From NCBI GenBank assembly GCA_023898465.1, contig CP060223.1, positions 352,001 through 416,000 of the forward strand: 64,000 nucleotides of DNA, given 5' to 3'. Position 1 is the stretch's first letter; every line of letters begins with the position of its first letter. This stretch comes from Candidatus Nomurabacteria bacterium. Lineage in GTDB: Bacteria > Patescibacteriota > Patescibacteriia > HK-STAS-PATE-3. The notes under the pieces were generated by a model. It saw nothing but the letters and a program-made list of their open reading frames with translations. It was not told where the DNA came from and searched no databases. Positions 17,016 through 27,943 of the stretch are shown in pieces. The position numbers and the translations under genes were made by a program.

Positions 17016-17744
17016 ATGTTAAAGCTTTTTGGTGTACGTATTGATTCTCTGACAAAGGATGAACTGCGAAACAAGTTATTTGCGTTTCGTCAGAGCAGGG
17101 GACACATGATTGCCACGGTGAATCCGGAAATGTTGATGGAGGCTCGAGAAAATAAGGATTTGCAAAAAGCACTCGAGCAAGCTGATCTTCGTTTACCAGA
17201 CGGATTTGGCGTTATGCTGGCGGCAAAGTATCGTGGTCAGGCTTTAGCAGATCGACATCCAGGAATTGATATTATGAGCACCCTATTAGCACAGGCGGCC
17301 AAACAACAGGAGCGGGTGTATCTCTTTGGTGCTAAGTCAGGTGTGGCAGAAAAAGCAGCTGCTCGTCTGGTAAAAAAACATCCAGGCCTACAGATTGTCG
17401 GAGCAGAAAGTGGATTTCGTTTTTGGGGTATTCGCTTATCTGATCGTGAAATGCGTGATCGCATCAAACGCGCAAAACCAGACTTACTCTTCGTAGCGCT
17501 TGGTATCCCTAAGCAGGAGCTATGGCTAGCAAAAAATCTGCCACACCTTTCATCAGTGAAAATCGCTGTAGGCGTCGGTGGCGCTTTTGACGTTTTTGCC
17601 GGAAACGTACGTCGAGCACCTAGTTTCCTGCGAGTTATTGGCTTAGAATGGTTTTGGCGCCTCCTTGTACAACCATGGCGCTGGCAGCGAATTATCACTG
17701 CTACCTATCGTTTCTCACTGGCTGTAATTCGCGCGAAAGAATGA
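17016..17744 (+). CDS. WecB/TagA/CpsF-family (GT26) glycosyltransferase
   Basis: VNPEMLMEA…DGFGVMLAAK…FVALGIPKQELW is the GT26 pattern. Confidence 0.8.
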   Translation: MLKLFGVRIDSLTKDELRNKLFAFRQSRGHMIATVNPEMLMEARENKDLQKALEQADLRLPDGFGVMLAAKYRGQALADRHPGIDIMSTLLAQAAKQQERVYLFGAKSGVAEKAAARLVKKHPGLQIVGAESGFRFWGIRLSDREMRDRIKRAKPDLLFVALGIPKQELWLAKNLPHLSSVKIAVGVGGAFDVFAGNVRRAPSFLRVIGLEWFWRLLVQPWRWQRIITATYRFSLAVIRAKE

Positions 17745-18892
17745 AATTACCCAGCACCACATTTTCACAGTTAAGTATTTTACTCGGAGCAATACTGGGC
17801 GTGGGCATGTTTGGTTTGCCTTATTTGACAGCCCGAGCGGGTTGGACAAGTCTTTTACTTTGGTTTTTGGTAGCCGGGTTTGTTTTACTTATTGTTGGAT
17901 TTTGCTATATCCGCATTTTGCATAATAGTCAGGGCCAACACCGGCTACCCGGTTATGTTGAACAGCACTTAGGGCATCGTTGGAAACAGGCAGCAATTTT
18001 CACCACCACGATGAGTATTTGGGGCGCCTTGCTCGTATACGCTATCCTAGGCGGACAATTCTTGCATGATTTATTTGCGGATAGTGTGGGAGGTAGTTCG
18101 CTATTCTACCTCTTAGTTTTTTATGTGAGTGCGGCGGCTCTCCTTTATGTACAAGCAAAAACAATTGCTCGTGTGGAAATTTTATTGCTTTGTTTCTTCC
18201 TTGTGCTTCTGGCGATGTTATTTATCACAGGATCACGAACTGTGCAGTTTGATTTTTCTTCTTGGGATATTCGATACTTTATTCTGCCTTACGGCGCAGT
18301 ACTTTTTTCACTCTGGGGCATTGATGTGGTACCCGATGCAGCTGAGTTAGGGGAGAGGAGTGAAAAGCATATGCGTAAAACGTATTTTATTGCCCTAGCG
18401 AGCGCTGTGCTTATTTATTGCTTGTTTGTTTATGCAATACTTTCAATGAGTGGCATGGCGAGTAGTCGAGACGCACTTAGTGGCTTGGTTGGATTATTGC
18501 CACAAAAAGTTTTATTGTTCGGCTATATAATTGGTTTCATTGCCACCTTTACCTCTTTCATTAGTTTGGGAATGAATCTGCACAAGACTTTTCAATTTGA
18601 TTATGGTCAATCTAAGCACCTCGCGCTTTTTTCTACTTTAGCTTTCCCATTGGCCGTAGCTCTAGCTGGAGTTAGTGATTACTTAAATGTCATGGGTATT
18701 GTTGGATCGCTGGCAGTTGGTGCCGAGGCAATTATTATCCTGCACATGTATGATCGTTTTTCCCATGGCAGAGCACATCTCTATCGGCAGCGCGACTGGC
18801 TTACTTTTCTCACTCGTCCGCTCATGCTACTCTTGGGATTCGGAGTTATCTTAGGCATTCTTACCCCATTTTTATTGAAGTATTATGGCTGA
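17741..18892 (+). CDS. APC-superfamily amino-acid permease-like membrane protein
   Basis: The ATG at 17741 overlaps the upstream stop (ATGA). Has about 11 TM helices. The N-terminus resembles Trp/Tyr (HAAAP) permeases. Confidence 0.45.
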   Translation: MKLPSTTFSQLSILLGAILGVGMFGLPYLTARAGWTSLLLWFLVAGFVLLIVGFCYIRILHNSQGQHRLPGYVEQHLGHRWKQAAIFTTTMSIWGALLVYAILGGQFLHDLFADSVGGSSLFYLLVFYVSAAALLYVQAKTIARVEILLLCFFLVLLAMLFITGSRTVQFDFSSWDIRYFILPYGAVLFSLWGIDVVPDAAELGERSEKHMRKTYFIALASAVLIYCLFVYAILSMSGMASSRDALSGLVGLLPQKVLLFGYIIGFIATFTSFISLGMNLHKTFQFDYGQSKHLALFSTLAFPLAVALAGVSDYLNVMGIVGSLAVGAEAIIILHMYDRFSHGRAHLYRQRDWLTFLTRPLMLLLGFGVILGILTPFLLKYYG

Positions 18893-20321
18893 TTTGACGG
18901 CACCTCGAGTCCGATTTGCCCCTTCGCCAACTGGTGAGCTGCACCTCGGTGGATTACGGACCGCATATTATGATTGGTTACTTGCTCGCAAGTATGGCGG
19001 TACATTTGTTTTACGTATCGAGGACACGGATAGGACACGCTATGTAGAGGGAGCAGAAGAGCGCTTGTTAGCAACTCTCCAACAATTAGGCTTGCAGCCA
19101 GACGAGGGTCCGGGCCTGGGTGGTGAGTATGGACCATATCGTCAATCTGAGCGGCTAAGCATCTATCATGAGGCGATACAAGAGTTGATTGAGAAGAAGC
19201 AGGCATATTATTGTACTTGTACACCGGAGCGATTAGAAAAAATGCGTGCTGAGCAAAGCGCAAACAAGCAAGCTCCAGGCTATGATCGACATTGTCGTGA
19301 TCGTTATAATGAAAAACCAACTGAGCCGCATGTAGTACGTTTTCGCATGCCGGATAATGAAAAAATCACGGTAAATGATTTCTTACGGGGTAACTTAAAC
19401 GTTGCTACTAGCACGCTGGATGATTTTGTTATTCTCAAGGCTGACGGGTTTCCCACCTATCACAGCGCAGTGGTCATCGATGATCATGCTATGCAGATTA
19501 CGCACGTTTTGAGGGGCGAGGAATGGTTACCATCATTACCAAAGCACGTTTTGCTTTATCAGGCCTTTGGATGGGAAGCGCCGGTTTTTGTCCACCTCCC
19601 GCTCATCTTAGGTAAAGACAAGAAAAAGCTTTCGAAACGCCATGGCGCGCATTCAGTAGAAAAATTTTTGCAAGACGGTGTATTGTCTGAGCCTTTGTTA
19701 AACGCGATTGCTTTGCTGGGATGGCACGCCTCTGATGATCAAGAAAAATATACCCGCCAGGAATTATTAGCAAAGTTTTCACTAGAAGGATTGCAAAAAT
19801 CTTCAGCAGTTTTTGATCCGGAAAAATTAGCCTGGCTCAATGCGCAGTATATCAAAACAATGGATATAAAAGACTTGAGCGTGCTTGCCCGGCCTTATAT
19901 TTCTGATGTGATCGCTCCGCAATATCTTGAGCGATTAGATGAGGCGCTGCCACTCGTAATTGAACGAATTACACAGCTGAGTGAATTACCTGAGCGGCTG
20001 AGCTTTTTACAGAACGAGTTACACTATGATCAGGAAATCGTTCCCTTCAAAACACAGAGTAGGGAAGAGGCGCATGCCGCGCTTCAGCAAGATATGGATT
20101 GGCTGATGGCGTACAATGGTGAATGGGGTACGCAAGCTTTAGAAAAATTCTTCCATGAGCAAGTAGAAACTCTGGGTAAAAAAGTGGGAGAATATTTTTG
20201 GCCCTTGCGTGTCGCCTTGAGCGGCAAGAAAGCCTCACCTGGGACATTTGAGCTGCTGCATTTCTTCGGTAGGGAAGAGGCGCAAAAGCGCATTCAACAA
20301 GCATTGCAAGCGCTTCAATAA
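18885..20321 (+). CDS. gltX: Glutamyl-tRNA synthetase
   Basis: HIGH-like PSPTGELHLGG and KMSKS-like KLSKRHG, with the class I GluRS architecture. Confidence 0.9.
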   Translation: MADLTAPRVRFAPSPTGELHLGGLRTAYYDWLLARKYGGTFVLRIEDTDRTRYVEGAEERLLATLQQLGLQPDEGPGLGGEYGPYRQSERLSIYHEAIQELIEKKQAYYCTCTPERLEKMRAEQSANKQAPGYDRHCRDRYNEKPTEPHVVRFRMPDNEKITVNDFLRGNLNVATSTLDDFVILKADGFPTYHSAVVIDDHAMQITHVLRGEEWLPSLPKHVLLYQAFGWEAPVFVHLPLILGKDKKKLSKRHGAHSVEKFLQDGVLSEPLLNAIALLGWHASDDQEKYTRQELLAKFSLEGLQKSSAVFDPEKLAWLNAQYIKTMDIKDLSVLARPYISDVIAPQYLERLDEALPLVIERITQLSELPERLSFLQNELHYDQEIVPFKTQSREEAHAALQQDMDWLMAYNGEWGTQALEKFFHEQVETLGKKVGEYFWPLRVALSGKKASPGTFELLHFFGREEAQKRIQQALQALQ

Positions 20322-20332
20322 TAGTTAGTCGC

Positions 20333-20392
20333 AGGCGAGGAGTTTATCCTCGCCGAATCCAAACGCCCAAGATAAATTCTTGGGCTACGCGT
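20333..20392. repeat. Left copy of an inverted repeat pair (about 58 bp) containing two internal hairpins
   Basis: 53 of the first 55 nt are identical to the reverse complement of 22770..22824. It contains hairpins CGAGGA-gttta-TCCTCG and CCCAAGA-taaat-TCTTGGG. Begins 12 nt after the gltX stop. Confidence 0.6.
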
Positions 20393-20526
20393 GAATGAGT
20401 ATCTTCAGCAATAAATGCATTCACACAAGCGTAACAAGAGTAAGACTTGTGCGATATACAGTATGTTAACGGTTTTTTGTGAGGACTAGCCAAAAACTTT
20501 ATCTCGTGCTATAGTATATAGGCAAT

Positions 20527-21852
20527 ATGGGGGCAAAAAAGCTCAACCAAAAAGCAAAATATCTACGCATTAGTATATGCACCCTCCTGGTCGCAATAAT
20601 CGCGGCTGGCGGCTTTTTGTCATTCTCATGGCAGCAATTAGCTGGTATTGCGAAAGCTCAAGACGTTAGTATTCCAGATGAAACAACAACCGAGCTCATT
20701 AATCTCAATAGTGATATTGAAAATAAGCGCGATGAAATTAATGACTTAGAAAAGAAGAGTCAAGCCTACCAGCAAAATATTAACAAGAAACTCCAGCAAT
20801 CGCAGTCAATTGAAACGCAGCTTTCCACTTTAGAGGATCAAATCGCTCAGACGGAAACCGATCTCGAAAAAACCAATCTAGAGGTTGAGAAGTATGGATT
20901 AGAAATACAGCAAGTAGAGGGATCAATAGCCAAGCGAAATGAAGAAATAGATGCGGCAAAAGATCGAATCGGTGAGTTTATTCGAGTCATGCATCGCAAT
21001 GATAGTCGCACATATTTAGAAATTTCTTTACTACATGATAACTTCTCGAGTTATTTCATGCAGGAACGGGCGGTAAAGGATATTGAAAATGAAACCAAGA
21101 AGGCGCTTGATCAGCTGCATGTGTTAAAACAGGGTCTAGAGGATGATCTAGATACCTTAACTGACAAAAAGCGTGAACTCGATGAGGCAAAAACACGTTT
21201 GGAAAGTACTAAAGATGCGCATGCACAGGAGTTAGAATACCAACAGTTGCTTTTGACTCAGGTGCAAGGGGAGTCAGGTGAATTACAATCATTGCTTGAT
21301 GAGGTCCAACAGCAGGTTAATCAGGCCACTTCCGAAGTTTCTGTACTTGAGAATCGTTTCCGCGACCGTCTCTCTGAGGAAAATATCGATTTAGATACTT
21401 TACTGCAGGCTCAAAATGACTTTATTTGGCCAGTAAATCCAACTCGAGGCATTAGTGCTTATTTCCATGATCCTAGCTATCCTTATCGCGGCTATTTTGA
21501 GCATAACGCTATTGATGTCCCGACGCCTCAAGGCACTCAAGTTCGGGCTTCCGCCGATGGTATAGTAAGTATTGCTCGTGACACAAATTGGACCACCGAC
21601 AGCAGGGGACGACGAATTCCAGCCTATAACTATGTTTCCATCATTCACGGTGGCGGTATTTCAACGGTCTATGGCCACTTAAGTGCGGTATATGTGTCGC
21701 CAGAGCAATTTGTCCGCAAAGGAGAGGTGATAGGATTAAGTGGGGCAACGCCTGGCACGGCTGGTGCTGGACTCTTTACGACCGGACCACACTTGCACTT
21801 AGAGTTTCGACTTAACGGTATTCCAGTTAATCCTTTGAACTACTTGCCGTAG
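20527..21852 (+). CDS. EnvC-like coiled-coil protein with a C-terminal M23/LytM peptidase domain that retains catalytic residues
   Basis: Signal/TM sequence. About 270 aa are heptad-rich and predicted coiled coil. The M23 motifs HNAIDV…D…YGH…GPHLHLEF are present. Confidence 0.8.
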   Translation: MGAKKLNQKAKYLRISICTLLVAIIAAGGFLSFSWQQLAGIAKAQDVSIPDETTTELINLNSDIENKRDEINDLEKKSQAYQQNINKKLQQSQSIETQLSTLEDQIAQTETDLEKTNLEVEKYGLEIQQVEGSIAKRNEEIDAAKDRIGEFIRVMHRNDSRTYLEISLLHDNFSSYFMQERAVKDIENETKKALDQLHVLKQGLEDDLDTLTDKKRELDEAKTRLESTKDAHAQELEYQQLLLTQVQGESGELQSLLDEVQQQVNQATSEVSVLENRFRDRLSEENIDLDTLLQAQNDFIWPVNPTRGISAYFHDPSYPYRGYFEHNAIDVPTPQGTQVRASADGIVSIARDTNWTTDSRGRRIPAYNYVSIIHGGGISTVYGHLSAVYVSPEQFVRKGEVIGLSGATPGTAGAGLFTTGPHLHLEFRLNGIPVNPLNYLP

Positions 21853-21882
21853 CATTCTTGTGTGAATGTTGTCGAATTGCCG

Positions 21883-21908
21883 CAGGCCTTTACCGGGCCT
21901 GTTTTGTT
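21883..21908 (+). terminator. Rho-independent terminator after the M23 peptidase gene
   Basis: CAGGCC-tttaccg-GGCCTG followed by TTTTGTT. Confidence 0.55.
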
Positions 21909-22014
21909 AGGTACTATGTTCATACTGCAACATAGGGAGAGGAGGGCTTCCCATTGTTGGCGTAAGCTACTCCTGCATATTGACAAAGGACTGTAGAGCA
22001 TTGGAGGGTTAACC

Positions 22015-22668
22015 ATGCGTTGGAAGAGCATGTCTTACCTGGCCTTCTTGATGGCCTTCATCGTCAGTCTCGGTACGTGGACGGGCGCTCAGGCAGCTGA
22101 GGAAGAGGTCTGTGATCCTCAGCCGGTGATCATGTGCACTTCGGCCTACTATGACTTCATGAGGCTCCTCACGGACGGTAACTGCTCGACTGTGGTGACC
22201 GAAGGGGAGAGCTCCTGGACCTTCAATTCGTGGCCACTGCTGTACTGCACGCAAGTGCCGGCAACGCTCAACTACGATGACTACTTCAGCACCGTGTCGA
22301 GTACGATCGAGCTGCGCGACGAGCATCCTTCGTTGAGCTTGATGAGTGACGGCGAGTGCTTCGAGGTCTACGCGGCGTGTCAGGGAGGTGCCTACGGCGT
22401 CACGGTGATGTATACGCACGCTGATGGATCGATGAGCTACGTCGGACAGCCGGGTGATTGCCCAGTCCAGATCAGTGGCGCCATTGCACTCAAGTTCGAC
22501 GGCGAGGCGCGCGAGCTCTACGTCGACGAGGGTTTTCGGACTCAAGTCTATCGAGTCGATGACCCACTTGGCTCACAGCACGCTCGAACCCTTCTACCGG
22601 ACCAGGCCGATACCCAAAGCGATAGGGTAGCGACCGACCAGTTCGCTGAAGTGGTATCCACGCGCTAG
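22015..22668 (+). CDS. Small secreted cysteine-rich protein encoded by a compositionally foreign (about 60% GC) gene
   Basis: RBS GGAGG 7 nt upstream of the ATG. Signal peptide MRWKSMSYLAFLMAFIVSLGTWTGAQA. Eight Cys in the mature part. Third codon positions are strongly G/C-biased, and spot GC is about 60% against about 43% background. No recognisable family. Confidence 0.55.
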   Translation: MRWKSMSYLAFLMAFIVSLGTWTGAQAAEEEVCDPQPVIMCTSAYYDFMRLLTDGNCSTVVTEGESSWTFNSWPLLYCTQVPATLNYDDYFSTVSSTIELRDEHPSLSLMSDGECFEVYAACQGGAYGVTVMYTHADGSMSYVGQPGDCPVQISGAIALKFDGEARELYVDEGFRTQVYRVDDPLGSQHARTLLPDQADTQSDRVATDQFAEVVSTR

Positions 22669-22673
22669 TTCCC

Positions 22674-22731
22674 AGCTCGGAGCAAGTTACTTACTTAGGT
22701 GAGTAGCAGCTCCGAGCTTTCTTTCTTTAAA
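22674..22731 (+). terminator. Hairpin plus T-rich tract after the GC-rich gene
   Basis: Perfect 10-bp stem AGCTCGGAGC…GCTCCGAGCT with a 25-nt loop, followed by TTTCTTTCTTTAAA. Confidence 0.4.
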
Positions 22732-22766
22732 GAAGCTATTACAAGCGAGAAGTATAATGCATCTAC

Positions 22767-22824
22767 GCTACCCAAGAATTTATCTTGGGCGTTTAGATTC
22801 GGCGAGGATAAATTCCTCGCCTGC
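22767..22824. repeat. Right copy of the inverted repeat pair
   Basis: It is the reverse complement of 20333..20392 with two substitutions and a small terminal indel. Lies 158 nt beyond the ftsQ stop. Confidence 0.6.
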
Positions 22825-22981
22825 TCTTAGAGGGGAGCATAACCTGTGTAACTAATATAGTGTCGCACAATATATCTTCTACGTCGCTATAACCATATAA
22901 TGCAATAAAAGGCCTATTCCTAGCATCTAGGCAGATAGTGCGAAATTAGCCTCTATTTTGCTCTCTACGGCGTCTTTTACC

Positions 22982-24022
22982 CTATTTTAGGTATACACGC
23001 TCTCCAAATCTCACATCAATATATCGTAAGCTTTCTGGATGTACGCTCGGGTCTTGCAAAGTTCGCTGTAGTTTATTGATCTGCGCTTCAATATCATCTT
23101 TGAGGACATATACTTGCCAGCCAGCTTCGGTGACGATATGAAATTCAGGTGTAAAATATAGCAGCTGTTGTATATCACATGTAGACTCAGGCAGATCCTC
23201 GCTTTCATTTGTATTCGCAGCTAGATTTGTATTCGTTGTTTTATTTGTGTTACTTATGACATCTGAGTCATCCTCTACAGGTATATTTGCCTCAGAAGGA
23301 GTATTCACGCAATCAAGTTGAGGTATAAGTACTTTTTGCATAGAAAAGTCACTCGGAAAGCTATCAGTAAATTTTTGTATCCCGTGTAAGATGTTTGCAT
23401 CTATTTTTTGACTCCCCACATCAACACTCAACTCATTCTCATCTTCAATACGCAATAAGTTAAGCTCCTCATCATTATTTTGTATTTCTGAAATGATAAA
23501 GCCATTTTCATCCATGAAATATTTTTTTTCGCGTGACTGCCAAATATATTTTGCTGATTTTGCTTGGATGCTGATAGTGAGTGTATTTGGGAAGTCTTTT
23601 TGGATGGAGATATTTTCTACTCCTAAGATGTTGGCTATCGCCTGTTCAAGATGGTCGCCAAACCATAAGGGTCGTAAAATAAAATAGTTTTGGTTGGGTA
23701 TGACAAGTAGTGTTCGTTTACTTAACAACACATCTACTTGCGTGGCAATTTGCTGCTCCAATTGAGTAGTGCTATCGATGAGCTCGATGTGTATTGATGA
23801 GATGCGGAACATTGGCGAGTTCATAATAACGTACCAGAGCAACCCAAATACAAGCACTTGGAGAATAAGAAGTGTGCGGTTCCGCCAACGAGATTGGAGA
23901 CGGGTTTGTTCGCTTGGAAAAAGTGGATTACTACGATGCGAATAATGCACCTCGCTCGTAGCAGGCTTCGGGAGTGTTCGTCGTTTCCGACGTGAAAATA
24001 TACGAGAAAGGAATCGCCGCAT
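22982..24022 (-). CDS. FtsQ/DivIB-like cell-division protein
   Basis: Basic N-terminal tail, one TM helix, then a POTRA-like region (ISSIHIELIDSTTQLEQQIATQV…). The C-terminal domain is Asn/Thr-rich. It is the last gene of the greA-lysS-serS-alr operon. Confidence 0.55.
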   Translation of the reverse strand: MRRFLSRIFSRRKRRTLPKPATSEVHYSHRSNPLFPSEQTRLQSRWRNRTLLILQVLVFGLLWYVIMNSPMFRISSIHIELIDSTTQLEQQIATQVDVLLSKRTLLVIPNQNYFILRPLWFGDHLEQAIANILGVENISIQKDFPNTLTISIQAKSAKYIWQSREKKYFMDENGFIISEIQNNDEELNLLRIEDENELSVDVGSQKIDANILHGIQKFTDSFPSDFSMQKVLIPQLDCVNTPSEANIPVEDDSDVISNTNKTTNTNLAANTNESEDLPESTCDIQQLLYFTPEFHIVTEAGWQVYVLKDDIEAQINKLQRTLQDPSVHPESLRYIDVRFGERVYLK

Positions 24023-24032
24023 AACTTCCCTA

Positions 24033-25154
24033 TTATTTCACAATGTGTCGCGGGAGCAAAGGATGGATGTGGGTAATTACTTCATAGTTAATAGTGCCCA
24101 TATCTTTGGCAATATCCTGTGCGCTTAGTTCCTCTCTCCCCTGCCGGCCGATAATAACCACTTCGTCTCCAGCTTTTGCTTGAGGAATTAGTTCACAATT
24201 TACCACACTGAGATTCATGGATAGGCGGCCTAAAAACTTTGCTACTTTCCCTCGCAGCAGTACCTGACCATTATTAGAGAGTGATCGTTGCAGGCCCTCA
24301 AAATACCCGATAGGAAGTACAGCCACTCGCATTTTTTTCTTCACTCGATAGGTGCGATCATATCCGATTGTCGTGCTAGGCGGCAGTGTTTTAATTGCGA
24401 GCACTCGAGTTTTCCAACTTAGCACTGGACGAAGTTTGAGGTCTTGTATTTTTTTTAGCTCCGGGGCTGGCCACAAACCATACATGCCTAAACCTACTCG
24501 CAGCATGTCATAGCGCATCTTAGGATACTTCAGTACCGCGGCGGTGCAGCTAATATGACGAATAGCTTTTTTATCAAGTACTACCTGTAACTCTTCAACA
24601 CATTCCTGGAAACGCTTGTTTTGCTGAAGTGTAAAAGACTTGTTATTACTTTCTGATTGCGCAAAATGAGAAAACACGCCATTCATTTTTAGCGCTGGTT
24701 TTGCTAGCAGTAGTTTTTTTAGTTTTGCGAGCTCGTTTGGCAGGAAGCCGATCCGGCTCGTGCCAACATCAAGCTTAAGATGAAGAGAGAGGCGTTTTTG
24801 TAAGCTTGTAGGTAGGGCGCGTATCTCTTGGAGTTGGGCAAACGAGTGCAATACAAGGGAGATATTATTTTGCACCGCAGCACTCGCGCTCTGAGTATCC
24901 CAGTAGCTTAAAACAACAATTGGTTTGCGTATGCCCAGAGCTCGTAACTCTAGCGCTTCGTCAAGATTCGCCGTACCAAATACGTCCACGTTGTTTTGAA
25001 GTATCTTTACTACCTCAGGTGTTCCTAGTCCGTAGGCGTTTGATTTTACCACTGCCATAAGCTTCGCATTTCCGCTGATACGTCGAAAAGCCTTGGCATT
25101 ATGTACAAGCGCCGATTTACTCAGCTCAATCCAAGTAAATTCTGTTTTAGGCAC
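24033..25154 (-). CDS. alr: Alanine racemase
   Basis: The PLP-lysine motif AVVKSNAYGLG and a TIM-barrel plus C-terminal beta domain. Confidence 0.85.
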   Translation of the reverse strand: MPKTEFTWIELSKSALVHNAKAFRRISGNAKLMAVVKSNAYGLGTPEVVKILQNNVDVFGTANLDEALELRALGIRKPIVVLSYWDTQSASAAVQNNISLVLHSFAQLQEIRALPTSLQKRLSLHLKLDVGTSRIGFLPNELAKLKKLLLAKPALKMNGVFSHFAQSESNNKSFTLQQNKRFQECVEELQVVLDKKAIRHISCTAAVLKYPKMRYDMLRVGLGMYGLWPAPELKKIQDLKLRPVLSWKTRVLAIKTLPPSTTIGYDRTYRVKKKMRVAVLPIGYFEGLQRSLSNNGQVLLRGKVAKFLGRLSMNLSVVNCELIPQAKAGDEVVIIGRQGREELSAQDIAKDMGTINYEVITHIHPLLPRHIVK

Positions 25155-26442
25155 GGGGGCGAAGTTCTTTTAGGCCAACAATTTTCTGCAGAGCCTTAGG
25201 TATCTTTACGCTGCCGTCTTTCTGCTGATGATTTTCCAGGAGTGCAATCAGGATGCGCGGTGAAGCGATGACAGTATTGTTTAGTGTGTACACAAATTGT
25301 CGCTCGCTCCCCTCTCCTTCGCCTTTCGTTTTGATGTTTAATCGGCGGGCTTGCCAGTCGCTGAGGTTTGAGCTGGAGTGCGTTTCTCCATACCCTTGTC
25401 GGCCCGGCATCCATGTTTCAATATCAACCATGCGGCGTTTACCAGCCCCCATATCCCCCGTCGAAGTTTCAATGAGTTGATATGGTAAGTCGAGATGCTC
25501 TAACATTTTTTGAGAAATATCCAGCATGGTAGTAAACCATTTTTCTGCTTCAGCAGCCTCAGGTTTACATAGCACGACTTGCTCAACTTTTACGAATTCT
25601 CTCACACGATAAAGTCCCTTTGTGTCTTTACCATAGCTGCCAATTTCTTCGCGATAACATTGACTAATACCGCAGAGGAGTTTTGGCAATTGCACTTCTG
25701 GAATAGTTTCATTTGCGTAGTACGAAAGTAGTGCAGGCTCAGAAGTGCCGGCTAAATATAGCGCCTCGCGATCATCCGCTGGAGTTTCACTGCCTGGACT
25801 TTGTAGTGAAAAGATTTCATTTTTCCCAAAAGGAAAATGACCACTTCCGTAAAGCGCAAAACCCTTAATAGCAGTTGGAGGTGTCATTAAGGTAAAGCCA
25901 GCTTTTTGCATTTCCTGCAAGCCCAGTAAAAGAATTGCCTGTTGTAAAAGCACAGCTTCGTTTTTTAAATAGTATCCACGGAAGCCGGCTACTTGAGCGC
26001 CTTTCTCTAGATCGAGAATATCCAGAGCAAGGCCGAGGCTAATATGATCCTTTGCTTCAAAGGAAAATGTCTTTGGTGTGCCGACTTGCTTGATCACCTT
26101 ATTGCTACTTGCGTCGGGGCCAATCGGAGCTCCTTCCCAAGGTATGTTTGGCATGCGCCAAAGCATTTCATCACGCTCGAGAGTTAACTCTTTTAATTTT
26201 GCTTCCAAGTCCTGCAGCCTTTGCTTAAGCTCCTTTGCCTGAGTGATCTGGGCAGGATCAGATTGTTTGCCTTGCTTAGCCAGTGCATTTCTCTCTGCTC
26301 GTACAGTTTCTGTTTCGCTGAGCAGTGCGCGATACTCTTTGTCGACTTGAAGAAAGCGATCAAAGTCAATTGATACCCCCTTGTTTTTTATGGCCTCGCG
26401 TACAATGTCCTGATTAGCCAAAATGAAAGAAGTATCAAGCAT
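25147..26442 (-). CDS. serS: Seryl-tRNA synthetase
   Basis: N-terminal coiled-coil arm and class II motifs (…FRGYYL…, GSGHFPF). Confidence 0.9.
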
Positions 26443-27943
26443 GATCGTTGCTCCGTAAGCTTGGAAAAAGTATACATTCTCGCAGACTGTTTGCGTTGGT
26501 AAGTATGGCAGTTAATCGATCAATACCAATGCCGATACCAGCGGCTGGTGGCATGCCATACATAAGCGCCTGCACATATTCCTCATCATGTGGTTGTGCC
26601 TCATCATCCCCTGCTTCACGCATGCGCTGTTGCTCAAGGAATCGGTCGCGCTGATCAATTGGATCATTTAACTCGCTGAATCCATTTGCTAACTCAGTTG
26701 AGGCAACTACCAATTGGAAACGTTCAACATAGCGCTTATCATCCGGCTTTGCTTTTGCGAGCGGAGAAAGCTCAATTGGATGATCAATGATAAAGATGGG
26801 ATTGATGCATTCAGGACGAACGAATTTCTTAAAAATGCTATCAATTATTTTTCCTCGTCCATCTGACGCTGCTACCTCGACGCCGCGGCGTTCAGCTTCA
26901 TGGGCTAAGGCATCCCGCTCTGGGAAGCGCTCAATATCCAGCTTAGCGTATTTGCGCACTGCATCACGGAAAGTCATTTGAGGGATTTCTTTTGGCCAAG
27001 TAATATGCTTATCGCCAAAAGCAAGCGTGTCACCCAGTTCAGTTGCTTTCAAAATGTTTGTGAAGAGCTCCTGGGTCATCTTCATTAAGGCTTGGTAATC
27101 CGCGTAGGCTATATAAAATTCCACCTGAGTAAATTCAGGGCTGTGGTCACGATCAATTCCCTCATTACGGAAGCAGCGACCGATTTCGTATACTCGCTCA
27201 TAGCCACCGACCAGCAGACGTTTTAAATAAAGCTCAGGCGCAATGCGTAAGAACAGATCCTGATTAAGTGTATCGTGATGAGTAATAAAAGGCTTAGCGC
27301 TGGCTCCTCCAGCCTGTCCTTGGAGAATTGGTGTTTCTACCTCTAGGAATTGTTGACCATCCAAAAAGCTTCGAATCGCGCTTATAATTTTTGCCCGCGT
27401 GCGAAATCTATTTTGAACCTCGGGGTTAGTTAAGAGATCAAGCTCTCGATGCCGAAGTCTTGTTTCAGCTTCACTTAAACCTTTGCGCTTATCAGGCAGT
27501 GGGTAAAGACTCTTACTCAGTATCTGATATTCCTCAACCTGAATAGTTTTTTCTCCTCGTCGCGTAGTACCCAGAGTGCCAGTCAGGCTGACAAAATCAC
27601 CCAGGTCTACCAGGCTGGTCCACTTTTCAAAAGCGTCATCCCCCACCTTATCTTTTGCGAGCGAGAGTTGTATTTTTCCACTCTCATCTTCAATATCACC
27701 AAAGCAGAGCGTGCCATGCAGTCTAATAGCTCGCAGTCGTCCATAAAGTGTTACTTTTGTTTCCGCGGTAACAAGTGCATCAAAATCAGAAAGTAGCTCT
27801 CCTACTCTATGCGTTCTGGAATTTTGTGCTCGAGCTGGATACGCGAAAAGCCCTTGGCTCTCCAGAGTGGCCCGTTTTTCCTTCCTGAAACGATGCTGGT
27901 CAAGTTCTTGTGTTGGCATACCAAATCGCCTGGAGTGTATCAC
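26435..27943 (-). CDS. lysS: Lysyl-tRNA synthetase, class II
   Basis: OB-fold anticodon-binding N-domain and class II core (…FRNEGID…, GIGIDR). Confidence 0.9.

Follow-up and report, generated by a model that had tools for sequence, protein, structure and literature searches.

Within a 64-kb stretch of contig CP060223.1, part of a 'Candidatus Nomurabacteria' metagenome-assembled genome and referred to below as the window, one open reading frame (ORF) of 217 codons, here called the orphan gene, is compositionally foreign and represents a lineage-specific acquisition. We consider it likely that this ORF is the single gene of a foreign cassette of about 1 kb that was acquired horizontally and that encodes a probably secreted protein. 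The cassette would derive from an unsampled organism or mobile element with a GC content of roughly 58-65%. It would have entered the short spacer between two convergent genes, encoding an M23 peptidase and an FtsQ-like protein, a place at the replication terminus some 35 bp away from a candidate dif site. It would have brought or kept a Shine-Dalgarno sequence, an intact frame of 217 codons and its own strong intrinsic terminator. The coordinates of all features are collected in Table 1.

A compositionally foreign gene gained in one lineage

The GC content of the orphan gene is 58.4%, and that of the whole window is 45.1%. By codon position, the values are 56.9, 45.9 and 72.5% (GC1, GC2 and GC3). 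The comparison set was composed of the 55 other ORFs of at least 120 aa in the window, with a mean GC of 44.8 ± 2.5% and a mean GC3 of 39.8 ± 3.2% (range 29-46%, maximum 45.9%). Relative to this set, the orphan gene is displaced by z = 5.4 for GC and z = 10.3 for GC3. Its codon-adaptation index, calculated with the window's own ORFs as reference, is 0.688 versus 0.787 ± 0.022 (z = -4.4). The gene is also the most GC-rich stretch of the 64 kb at scales of 400, 600 and 800 bp (at 400 bp, 0.598 versus 0.542 for the runner-up). Windows of 60 nt within it range from 55 to 63% GC, and the GC-rich island stops sharply at about 22682, shortly past the stop codon. At the protein level, lysine, asparagine and isoleucine account for 0.9, 1.4 and 2.3% of the residues, versus host means of 6.1, 3.6 and 7.2%. 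A sequence-only reading of the window had described a foreign gene of about 60% GC. This description holds, and the gene is a strong outlier for GC, GC3 and codon adaptation alike.

The excess of GC at the third position was reached in none of 20000 shuffles. On the opposite strand, a 178-aa ORF (22009-22545) shows GC1 of 75% and GC3 of 53%, a pattern like that of non-coding sequence. The GC3 excess together with the wrong codon-position pattern of the antisense ORF identifies the plus frame as the coding frame. For coding sequences that evolved in GC-rich genomes, GC3 > GC1 > GC2 is the typical order, and the general relation between GC3 and genome GC would place the source genome at roughly 58-65%. 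The very large GC3 contrast that is left suggests little amelioration.

The same composition bears on the idea of a native, fast-evolving gene whose bias would have arisen by selection or local mutation. Genomes of the Candidate Phyla Radiation (CPR) are rich in lineage-specific secreted hypothetical proteins, and no donor was found, two points that suit such an origin. However, a third-position excess of 33 points confined to one gene has no known selective cause. Every other ORF of at least 120 aa in the window stays between 29 and 46% GC3, the island has a sharp end near 22682, and the corresponding sites of syntenic relatives are empty. We regard a native origin as very improbable.

The host is a member of the CPR, as had been guessed from the sequence. 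The M23 protein encoded on the left flank is 100% identical to an NCBI protein from a 'Candidatus Nomurabacteria' metagenome-assembled genome. Its orthologues, with 45-68% identity, occur in CPR genomes, and its homologues belong to Patescibacteria (Kerfeldbacteria, Komeilibacteria and 'Patescibacteria group'). The order GltX, M23 and then, on the opposite strand, the FtsQ-like gene is kept in relatives, which made it possible to compare the spacer between the last two genes (Table 1). Nothing resembling the high-GC ORF is present at the syntenic site in 7 of 7 relatives, of which three have an empty site and four an unrelated gene with a nuclease-like fold. Since relatives do not carry it, the orphan gene was gained after the split from the sampled relatives and before the three sampled populations described below diverged. 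The orphan gene is thus a lineage-specific acquisition. The acquisition can be called recent only relative to distant relatives, whose M23 proteins show 62-68% identity.

The sharp compositional boundaries, in a genome assembled from a metagenome, could also be the mark of a chimeric assembly or of contaminating read-through from a high-GC organism, a risk to which the sequence-only reading had pointed. Three independent assemblies were therefore compared, namely the NCBI contig of 1,082,586 bp and two Logan assemblies, from SRR14234116 (L001) and SRR12358676 (L007). The L001 contig (3357 bp) covers both junctions and differs by 4 single-nucleotide polymorphisms (SNPs), all within the FtsQ-like gene. 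In the L007 contig (20.5 kb), the orphan ORF is identical and 28 SNPs are found, every one at or beyond position 23006. The orphan gene and both of its junctions are identical in 3 of 3 assemblies. The SNPs elsewhere indicate distinct populations, so that a common chimeric join is not credible and this explanation is effectively refuted at the assembly level. A 108-aa database fragment (P0001) was considered as a pseudogene variant of the orphan gene and was rejected, because its DNA is identical and the fragment is therefore an artefact of gene calling.

Signals of the gene, features of its product and searches for relatives

A well-spaced Shine-Dalgarno sequence precedes the ATG of the orphan gene. 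Six bases past the stop codon, a hairpin (22674-22718) has a folding energy of -33.2 kcal/mol (z = -4.9; 0/200 shuffles as stable) and is followed by the T-rich run UUUCUUUCUUU. Codon periodicity, ribosome-binding site, predicted signal peptide and terminator support a genuine plus-strand gene. The gene may be expressed, as the ribosome-binding site and the terminator suggest. Another terminator-like hairpin separates the M23 gene from the orphan gene, and relatives have no hairpin at the equivalent position.

The N-terminus of the product is organised like a Sec type I signal peptide. It is composed of MRWK (n-region charge +2), a 15-residue core, MSYLAFLMAFIVSLG, with a mean Kyte-Doolittle hydropathy of 1.99, and a predicted cleavage site AQA/AEEE. 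Inspection of the protein found no lipobox, no LPXTG motif and no second hydrophobic segment. Most likely, the Sec pathway exports the product, which is cleaved after AQA and then either released or held at the cell surface. These features would suit an extracellular or cell-surface role. An effector, adhesin or toxin, as the sequence-only reading had suggested, would be a purely speculative assignment for a protein that fits no family or fold and has no informative neighbour. The predicted mature protein has 190 residues, a mass of 21 kDa, a pI of 4.05 and one lysine, and is probably beta-rich. Seven cysteines are found, at residues 33, 41, 57, 78, 115, 122 and 149. On these points the sequence-only reading fared well for the ribosome-binding site, for the hairpin terminator, which proves to be strong, and for the cleavable signal peptide, with which charge, hydrophobic core, A-x-A motif and lack of a lipobox are consistent. 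Its count of eight cysteines was one too high. An internal repeat of 50 aa (DGECFEVY and DGEARELY; repeat D1 in the DNA) is not significant, as 12 of 100 shuffles score equally.

Homologues were sought in a public protein search space of about 15 billion proteins in total. A word-seeded HMMER search of 5.8 billion clusters returned no homologue of the orphan protein. Among 1.84 billion representatives searched exhaustively with phmmer, the only hits were a fragment of the protein itself and two repeat proteins. The first of these (P0002, E = 1e-6) was rejected because one 37-residue match, repeated 4 times in the subject, inflates the summed score. The second (P0003, E = 3e-4), a giant protein with NHL and FN3 domains, was rejected for the same kind of inflation, from one 24-residue match repeated 3 times. 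Membership of the NHL/beta-propeller proteins was likewise dismissed, as there is no Pfam NHL match and the similarity is a single 24-residue segment, LYVDEG..QVY. The orphan protein had no match in Pfam, NCBIfam, PHROGs or PADLOC, the best hit of a sequence search of the PDB had E = 0.27, and tblastn against phages and plasmids and against IMG/VR viral contigs returned no homologue. The earlier proposal of a high-GC partner bacterium, or an actinobacterium, as donor is not supported, since no true homologue was present in any organism among the 1.84 billion representatives. Low-GC homologues with native codon usage, which would have spoken against recent acquisition, were not found either. 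The donor is unsampled, or the orphan gene has diverged past recognition.

The terminus spacer and its candidate dif site

Besides the ORF and its terminator, the insertion takes in 162 bp of upstream sequence and, on the other side, an AT-rich tail that contains two more hairpins. Native-like sequence, with an AGGGGAG box and then an imperfect palindrome, restarts at about 22826, and both boundaries are placed to within a few tens of bases. The two hairpins of the AT-rich tail, which links the terminator to the AGGGGAG box, are adjacent (22771-22821; CCCAAGA-ATTTA-TCTTGGG and GGCGAGGA-TAAAT-TCCTCGCC), and their loops are complementary to each other. An inverted repeat of 10 nt, ATTCTTGTGT at 21854-21863 and ACCCAAGAAT at 22770-22779, is complementary at 9 of 10 positions. 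It begins 2 nt past the M23 stop codon, and its second copy is close to where the insertion ends on the right. It may be what is left of terminal repeats; it is accompanied by no target-site duplication, its post hoc chance is about 0.04 by our own estimate, and we do not rely on it. A direct repeat (D3, 14/18) was judged to be due to chance.

The AGGGGAG box and the palindrome are present in all 8 relatives' loci in an alignment of the spacers. The distance between them is about 22 nt, with 33 nt in L004 and about 790 nt in L009. The sequence of the candidate site is GTGTCGCACAATATATCTTCTACGTCGC, and the 28-nt palindrome is written GTGTCGCACAATATAcCTTtTAtGCC; the consensus in relatives is GTGTCGCACAA-TATAcC-TTtTAtGCCxC. 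Within the window, the palindrome is single-copy (position weight matrix (PWM) score of 38.0, next best 14.7). Two arms of 11 bp flank its 6-bp centre (11+6+11) and are symmetric at 7 of 11 positions. Known dif sites have two 11-bp arms with partial dyad symmetry around a centre of 6-8 bp (PMC5357621). Compared with the E. coli dif sequence (PMC3025954), the palindrome matches at 14 of 28 positions, and at 7 of 11 in the left, XerC-side arm. By the criterion of Kono et al., also from PMC3025954, positions 7-12 must pair with positions 17-22 in more than 4 of 6 cases; the candidates have 4-5 and E. coli dif has 6, a borderline result.

The position of the palindrome is that of a terminus. The cumulative G-C curve peaks at 23-24 kb, with a skew of +0.054 to the left of the palindrome and -0.019 to its right, and in L002 the skew peak also adjoins the palindrome copy. 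Gene orientation switches at 22.7-23.0 kb, from the plus strand (17.6-22.7 kb) to the minus strand for the next 41 kb. Neither the palindrome nor the conserved spacer corresponds to an Rfam family (best score 17 bits, E = 0.5). No tyrosine-recombinase motif was found by regular-expression search in the 64-kb window or in the relatives' loci. No publication linking CPR and dif was found in the searchable literature. Taken together, conservation, uniqueness, skew and architecture make us lean slightly towards a chromosomal dif site at 22860-22887.

The spacer beside this palindrome is a variable slot that turns over between lineages. In four relatives (L003, L008, L009 and L010), it is occupied by a gene of a 233-aa family, which is not found at the window's own locus. 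The family forms 18 clusters with 45-68% identity and has no Pfam domain. Its gene is always located at the M23/FtsQ junction, with its 3' end at most about 10 nt from the right arm of the palindrome. The unit formed by gene and site is inverted between lineages, and lies on the FtsQ side in L003 and L008 and on the M23 side in L009 and L010. The GC content of the gene is 6-9 points under that of its own locus. An AlphaFold2 model of the 233-aa protein, obtained with an alignment of 17 sequences, has a predicted local distance difference test score (pLDDT) of 87.5. All of its top PDB matches are PD-(D/E)xK nucleases, namely Bax1 (5.6e-4), BstEII, Can2/Card1, Cas4, PspGI and NucS. The model suggests that the protein may be a site-associated nuclease module. 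Kinship between this family and the orphan protein was rejected (hhalign probability of 0.1%).

Given this location, one may ask whether the cassette is, or was, an element of the IMEX type (integrative mobile elements exploiting Xer recombination) or of the dif-module type, integrated by the host Xer machinery at the chromosomal dif site. About 35 bp separate it from the terminus palindrome, which is conserved and single-copy and has the architecture of a dif site, and the slot beside this palindrome varies among relatives. The resident gene of L003 has at its far end a partial second site that matches the consensus centre and right arm at 15 of 18 positions, a score that 2 of 300 shuffles equal. 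Both IMEX elements and Xer-site-flanked modules of one gene are established (PMC5357621, PMC7399989, PMC12907356). However, no second dif-like site is found at either boundary of the cassette (21800-22850, best PWM score of 6.4 versus 38), and gapped searches for a second site did no better than shuffles. The cassette was inserted not within the palindrome but to its left, beyond the conserved AGGGGAG box. Tests for a second site with each locus's own site were not significant in L003, L008, L009 and L010. The identity of the motif as dif is itself unproven, with 4-5 of 6 pairs where more than 4 are asked, and no Xer gene was seen in the window. Capture by Xer appears unlikely, and a connection of the foreign cassette with the terminus/dif neighbourhood is suggested by its location.

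Two side observations concern the right part of the locus. First, the SNPs are unevenly distributed when window positions 17342-27077 are compared with L007 and L001. There are none in 17342-23005 (5.7 kb, foreign gene included), 28 in 23006-26318 and none in 26319-27077, and all four SNPs of L001 are among the 28 of L007. This pattern looks like a homologous-recombination tract with its left edge some 120 bp rightward of the dif-like site. Second, the FtsQ-like gene, which has an orthologue in L002 (30% identity, E = 3e-52), opens the 41-kb minus-strand run. From 22982 to 63920, all ORFs of at least 120 aa are on the minus strand (FtsQ-like, alanine racemase, seryl-tRNA synthetase and onward). 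A D-Ala-D-Ala ligase gene lies between the FtsQ and Alr genes in L006 and L008 and is not present at this place in the window.

Table 1 Features of the window and of the syntenic loci of its relatives
Feature	Locus	Position or length	Strand	Basis or remark
High-GC orphan gene, 217 aa	window	22015-22668	+	ATG start; NCBI USN53882.1, 'hypothetical protein H6760_01800'
Shine-Dalgarno sequence GGAGGG	window	22003-22008	+	sequence; ATG 6 nt downstream
Predicted Sec type I signal peptide, 27 aa, cleavage AQA/AEEE	window	22015-22095	+	inspection and hydropathy
Intrinsic terminator, interrupted 19-bp hairpin then TTTCTTTCTTT	window	22674-22729	+	fold energy, shuffles, inverted repeat
Lineage-specific insertion, approximate	window	21853-22825		spacer of 1129 bp versus 115-140 bp (L002, L004, L006)
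Native coiled-coil M23 peptidoglycan endopeptidase, left flank	window	20527-21852	+	Pfam PF01551, E = 7e-23; NCBIfam matches
Terminator-like hairpin 3' of M23 gene, GCAGGCC...GGCCTGT and TTTTGTT	window	21882-21902	+	consensus scan, spacer alignment
Conserved AGGGGAG box	window	22831-22837	+	alignment; near M23 stop in relatives, shifted by insertion in window
Candidate dif (Xer) site, imperfect palindrome GTGTCGCACAA-TATATC-TTCTACGTCGC	window	22860-22887	+	conservation, uniqueness, skew, architecture
Native FtsQ/DivIB-like gene, right flank	window	22982-24022	-	sub-threshold POTRA_1 and FtsQ_DivIB_C matches; weak Pfam signal
Box/palindrome element	window	22831-22887
Box/palindrome element	L002	7270-7325
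Box/palindrome element	L003	843-870
Box/palindrome element	L004	5289-5316
Box/palindrome element	L006	2179-2206
Box/palindrome element	L008	4709-4740	-
Box/palindrome element	L009	4698-4729	-
Box/palindrome element	L010	4709-4740	-
233-aa family gene	L003	862-1563	-
233-aa family gene	L008	4001-4699
233-aa family gene	L009	4001-4699
233-aa family gene	L010	4001-4702
M23/FtsQ spacer	window	1129 bp		high-GC ORF inside
M23/FtsQ spacer	L002	140 bp		empty
M23/FtsQ spacer	L004/L005	115 bp		empty
M23/FtsQ spacer	L006	131 bp		empty
M23/FtsQ spacer	L003, L008, L009, L010			occupied by unrelated 233-aa gene

Weighing the acquisition, comparison with known systems and significance

Several observations count against a horizontally acquired gene with a secreted product. 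No donor or homologue was found in the 15 billion proteins searched, so that composition and phyletic pattern carry the case for transfer. The sampled relatives are distant (M23 45-68% identity, GltX 49%), and even with the closer M23 proteins at 62-68%, loss in the other lineages would be a conceivable reading of the phyletic pattern; composition opposes such a loss. The cassette is flanked by neither a second dif-like site nor a target-site duplication, and it has no significant terminal repeat, tRNA or mobility gene at its sides. The AlphaFold2 model of the orphan protein, calculated without an alignment, has a pLDDT of 34.8, which makes it unusable, and structure prediction, like the sequence searches, led to no assigned fold. 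The odd number of cysteines, with no homologues to show conserved ones, weakens the picture of a disulfide-rich secreted protein. A scan with the sigma-70 consensus, which may not fit CPR bacteria, found no plus-strand promoter upstream of the orphan gene. The TTGACA at 21980-21985 that had been proposed as a -35 box does not change this, since a -10 hexamer at a spacing of 16-18 nt would coincide with the ribosome-binding site. Finally, the three copies, all identical, give no sign of purifying selection.

Some of these points would be equally compatible with a passenger relic, in which foreign DNA was integrated and the ORF persists in this host as what remains of a donor gene, neutral, unexpressed or functionless, that decay has not yet reached. 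The missing promoter and the terminator-like hairpin between the M23 gene and the ORF fit this explanation, as do the lack of homologues that would give a sign of conservation, the identity of the three copies, which hides selection, and the absence of the gene from every relative. Yet the frame of 217 codons is intact, the ribosome-binding site is well spaced, the signal peptide is complete and the terminator is strong. Moreover, the gene has been kept in three populations of a streamlined genome of about 1 Mb, from which useless DNA normally disappears, and the negative promoter scan relied on a consensus possibly inapplicable to CPR. A relic is, in our opinion, a rather unlikely explanation, and we retain that of an acquired single-gene cassette with a probably secreted product.

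The closest known counterparts are horizontally acquired orphan genes and single-gene genomic islets recognised by atypical GC3 and codon usage. The orphan gene shares with them the deviation in GC and GC3, the poor codon adaptation, the patchy pattern, the empty syntenic sites and the lack of an assignable function. It differs from them in that it has no donor or homologue at all and no associated mobility gene, tRNA or repeat. Horizontal transfer into Patescibacteria, including that of genomic islands, is documented, and 83% of the transfers reported in Patescibacteria occurred between Patescibacteria (PMC12455944). The GC3 contrast of 73% versus 40% points to a source outside this group.

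The comparison with IMEX elements and dif modules (CTX-phi, TLC-phi and GGI; pdif modules of Acinetobacter) rests on a candidate dif motif, a putative Xer target. As in these systems, a small cargo is found beside a dif-like site at the terminus, in a variable slot. Unlike them, the cassette is not accompanied in the window by the second, hybrid or degenerate, Xer site that defines such modules, and its insertion is outside the core site. It does not abut the candidate dif core, as its right end and the palindrome are about 35 bp apart. The unit formed by the 233-aa gene and the palindrome, in which the gene is fixed right beside the site and moves or inverts with it, resembles the xerS-difSL modules, where XerS likewise adjoins difSL (PMC5357621). 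However, the 233-aa protein has a fold like that of PD-(D/E)xK nucleases and not that of a tyrosine recombinase. The orphan protein itself resembles small secreted cysteine-rich proteins in its predicted N-terminal Sec signal, its small size, its acidity, its cysteines and its orphan character. Its cysteines are, however, few and odd in number (7 in 190 residues, 3.7%), it has no family or fold, and this group is a descriptive category rather than a homology class.

The orphan gene is therefore real but a fairly ordinary case of the horizontal acquisition of such a gene, and it does not stand for a new type of system. Single orphan genes with no donor or fold are common in metagenome-derived genomes. 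The extreme compositional contrast, the total lack of relatives and the terminus/dif-like context lift the case slightly. The context has a value of its own, as it provides a candidate dif site for a clade of Patescibacteria, for which none is described in the searchable literature, and a nuclease-fold gene that travels with the terminus site. A more far-reaching possibility is that the terminus spacer serves this CPR clade as a slot dedicated to gene capture, through the action of Xer or of the PD-(D/E)xK nuclease of relatives, and that the lineage thereby took up from an unsampled GC-rich organism, possibly its host, a gene for a secreted protein with a new fold acting at the symbiont-host interface. 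We mention it as a speculation that is more probably wrong than right by a wide measure.

The genomes of CPR bacteria are tiny, and a life attached to other cells is assumed for these bacteria. With such a lifestyle, a foreign protein that is retained and apparently secreted is a reasonable candidate for an interaction factor, and its GC-rich signature could in principle point to the partner organism.

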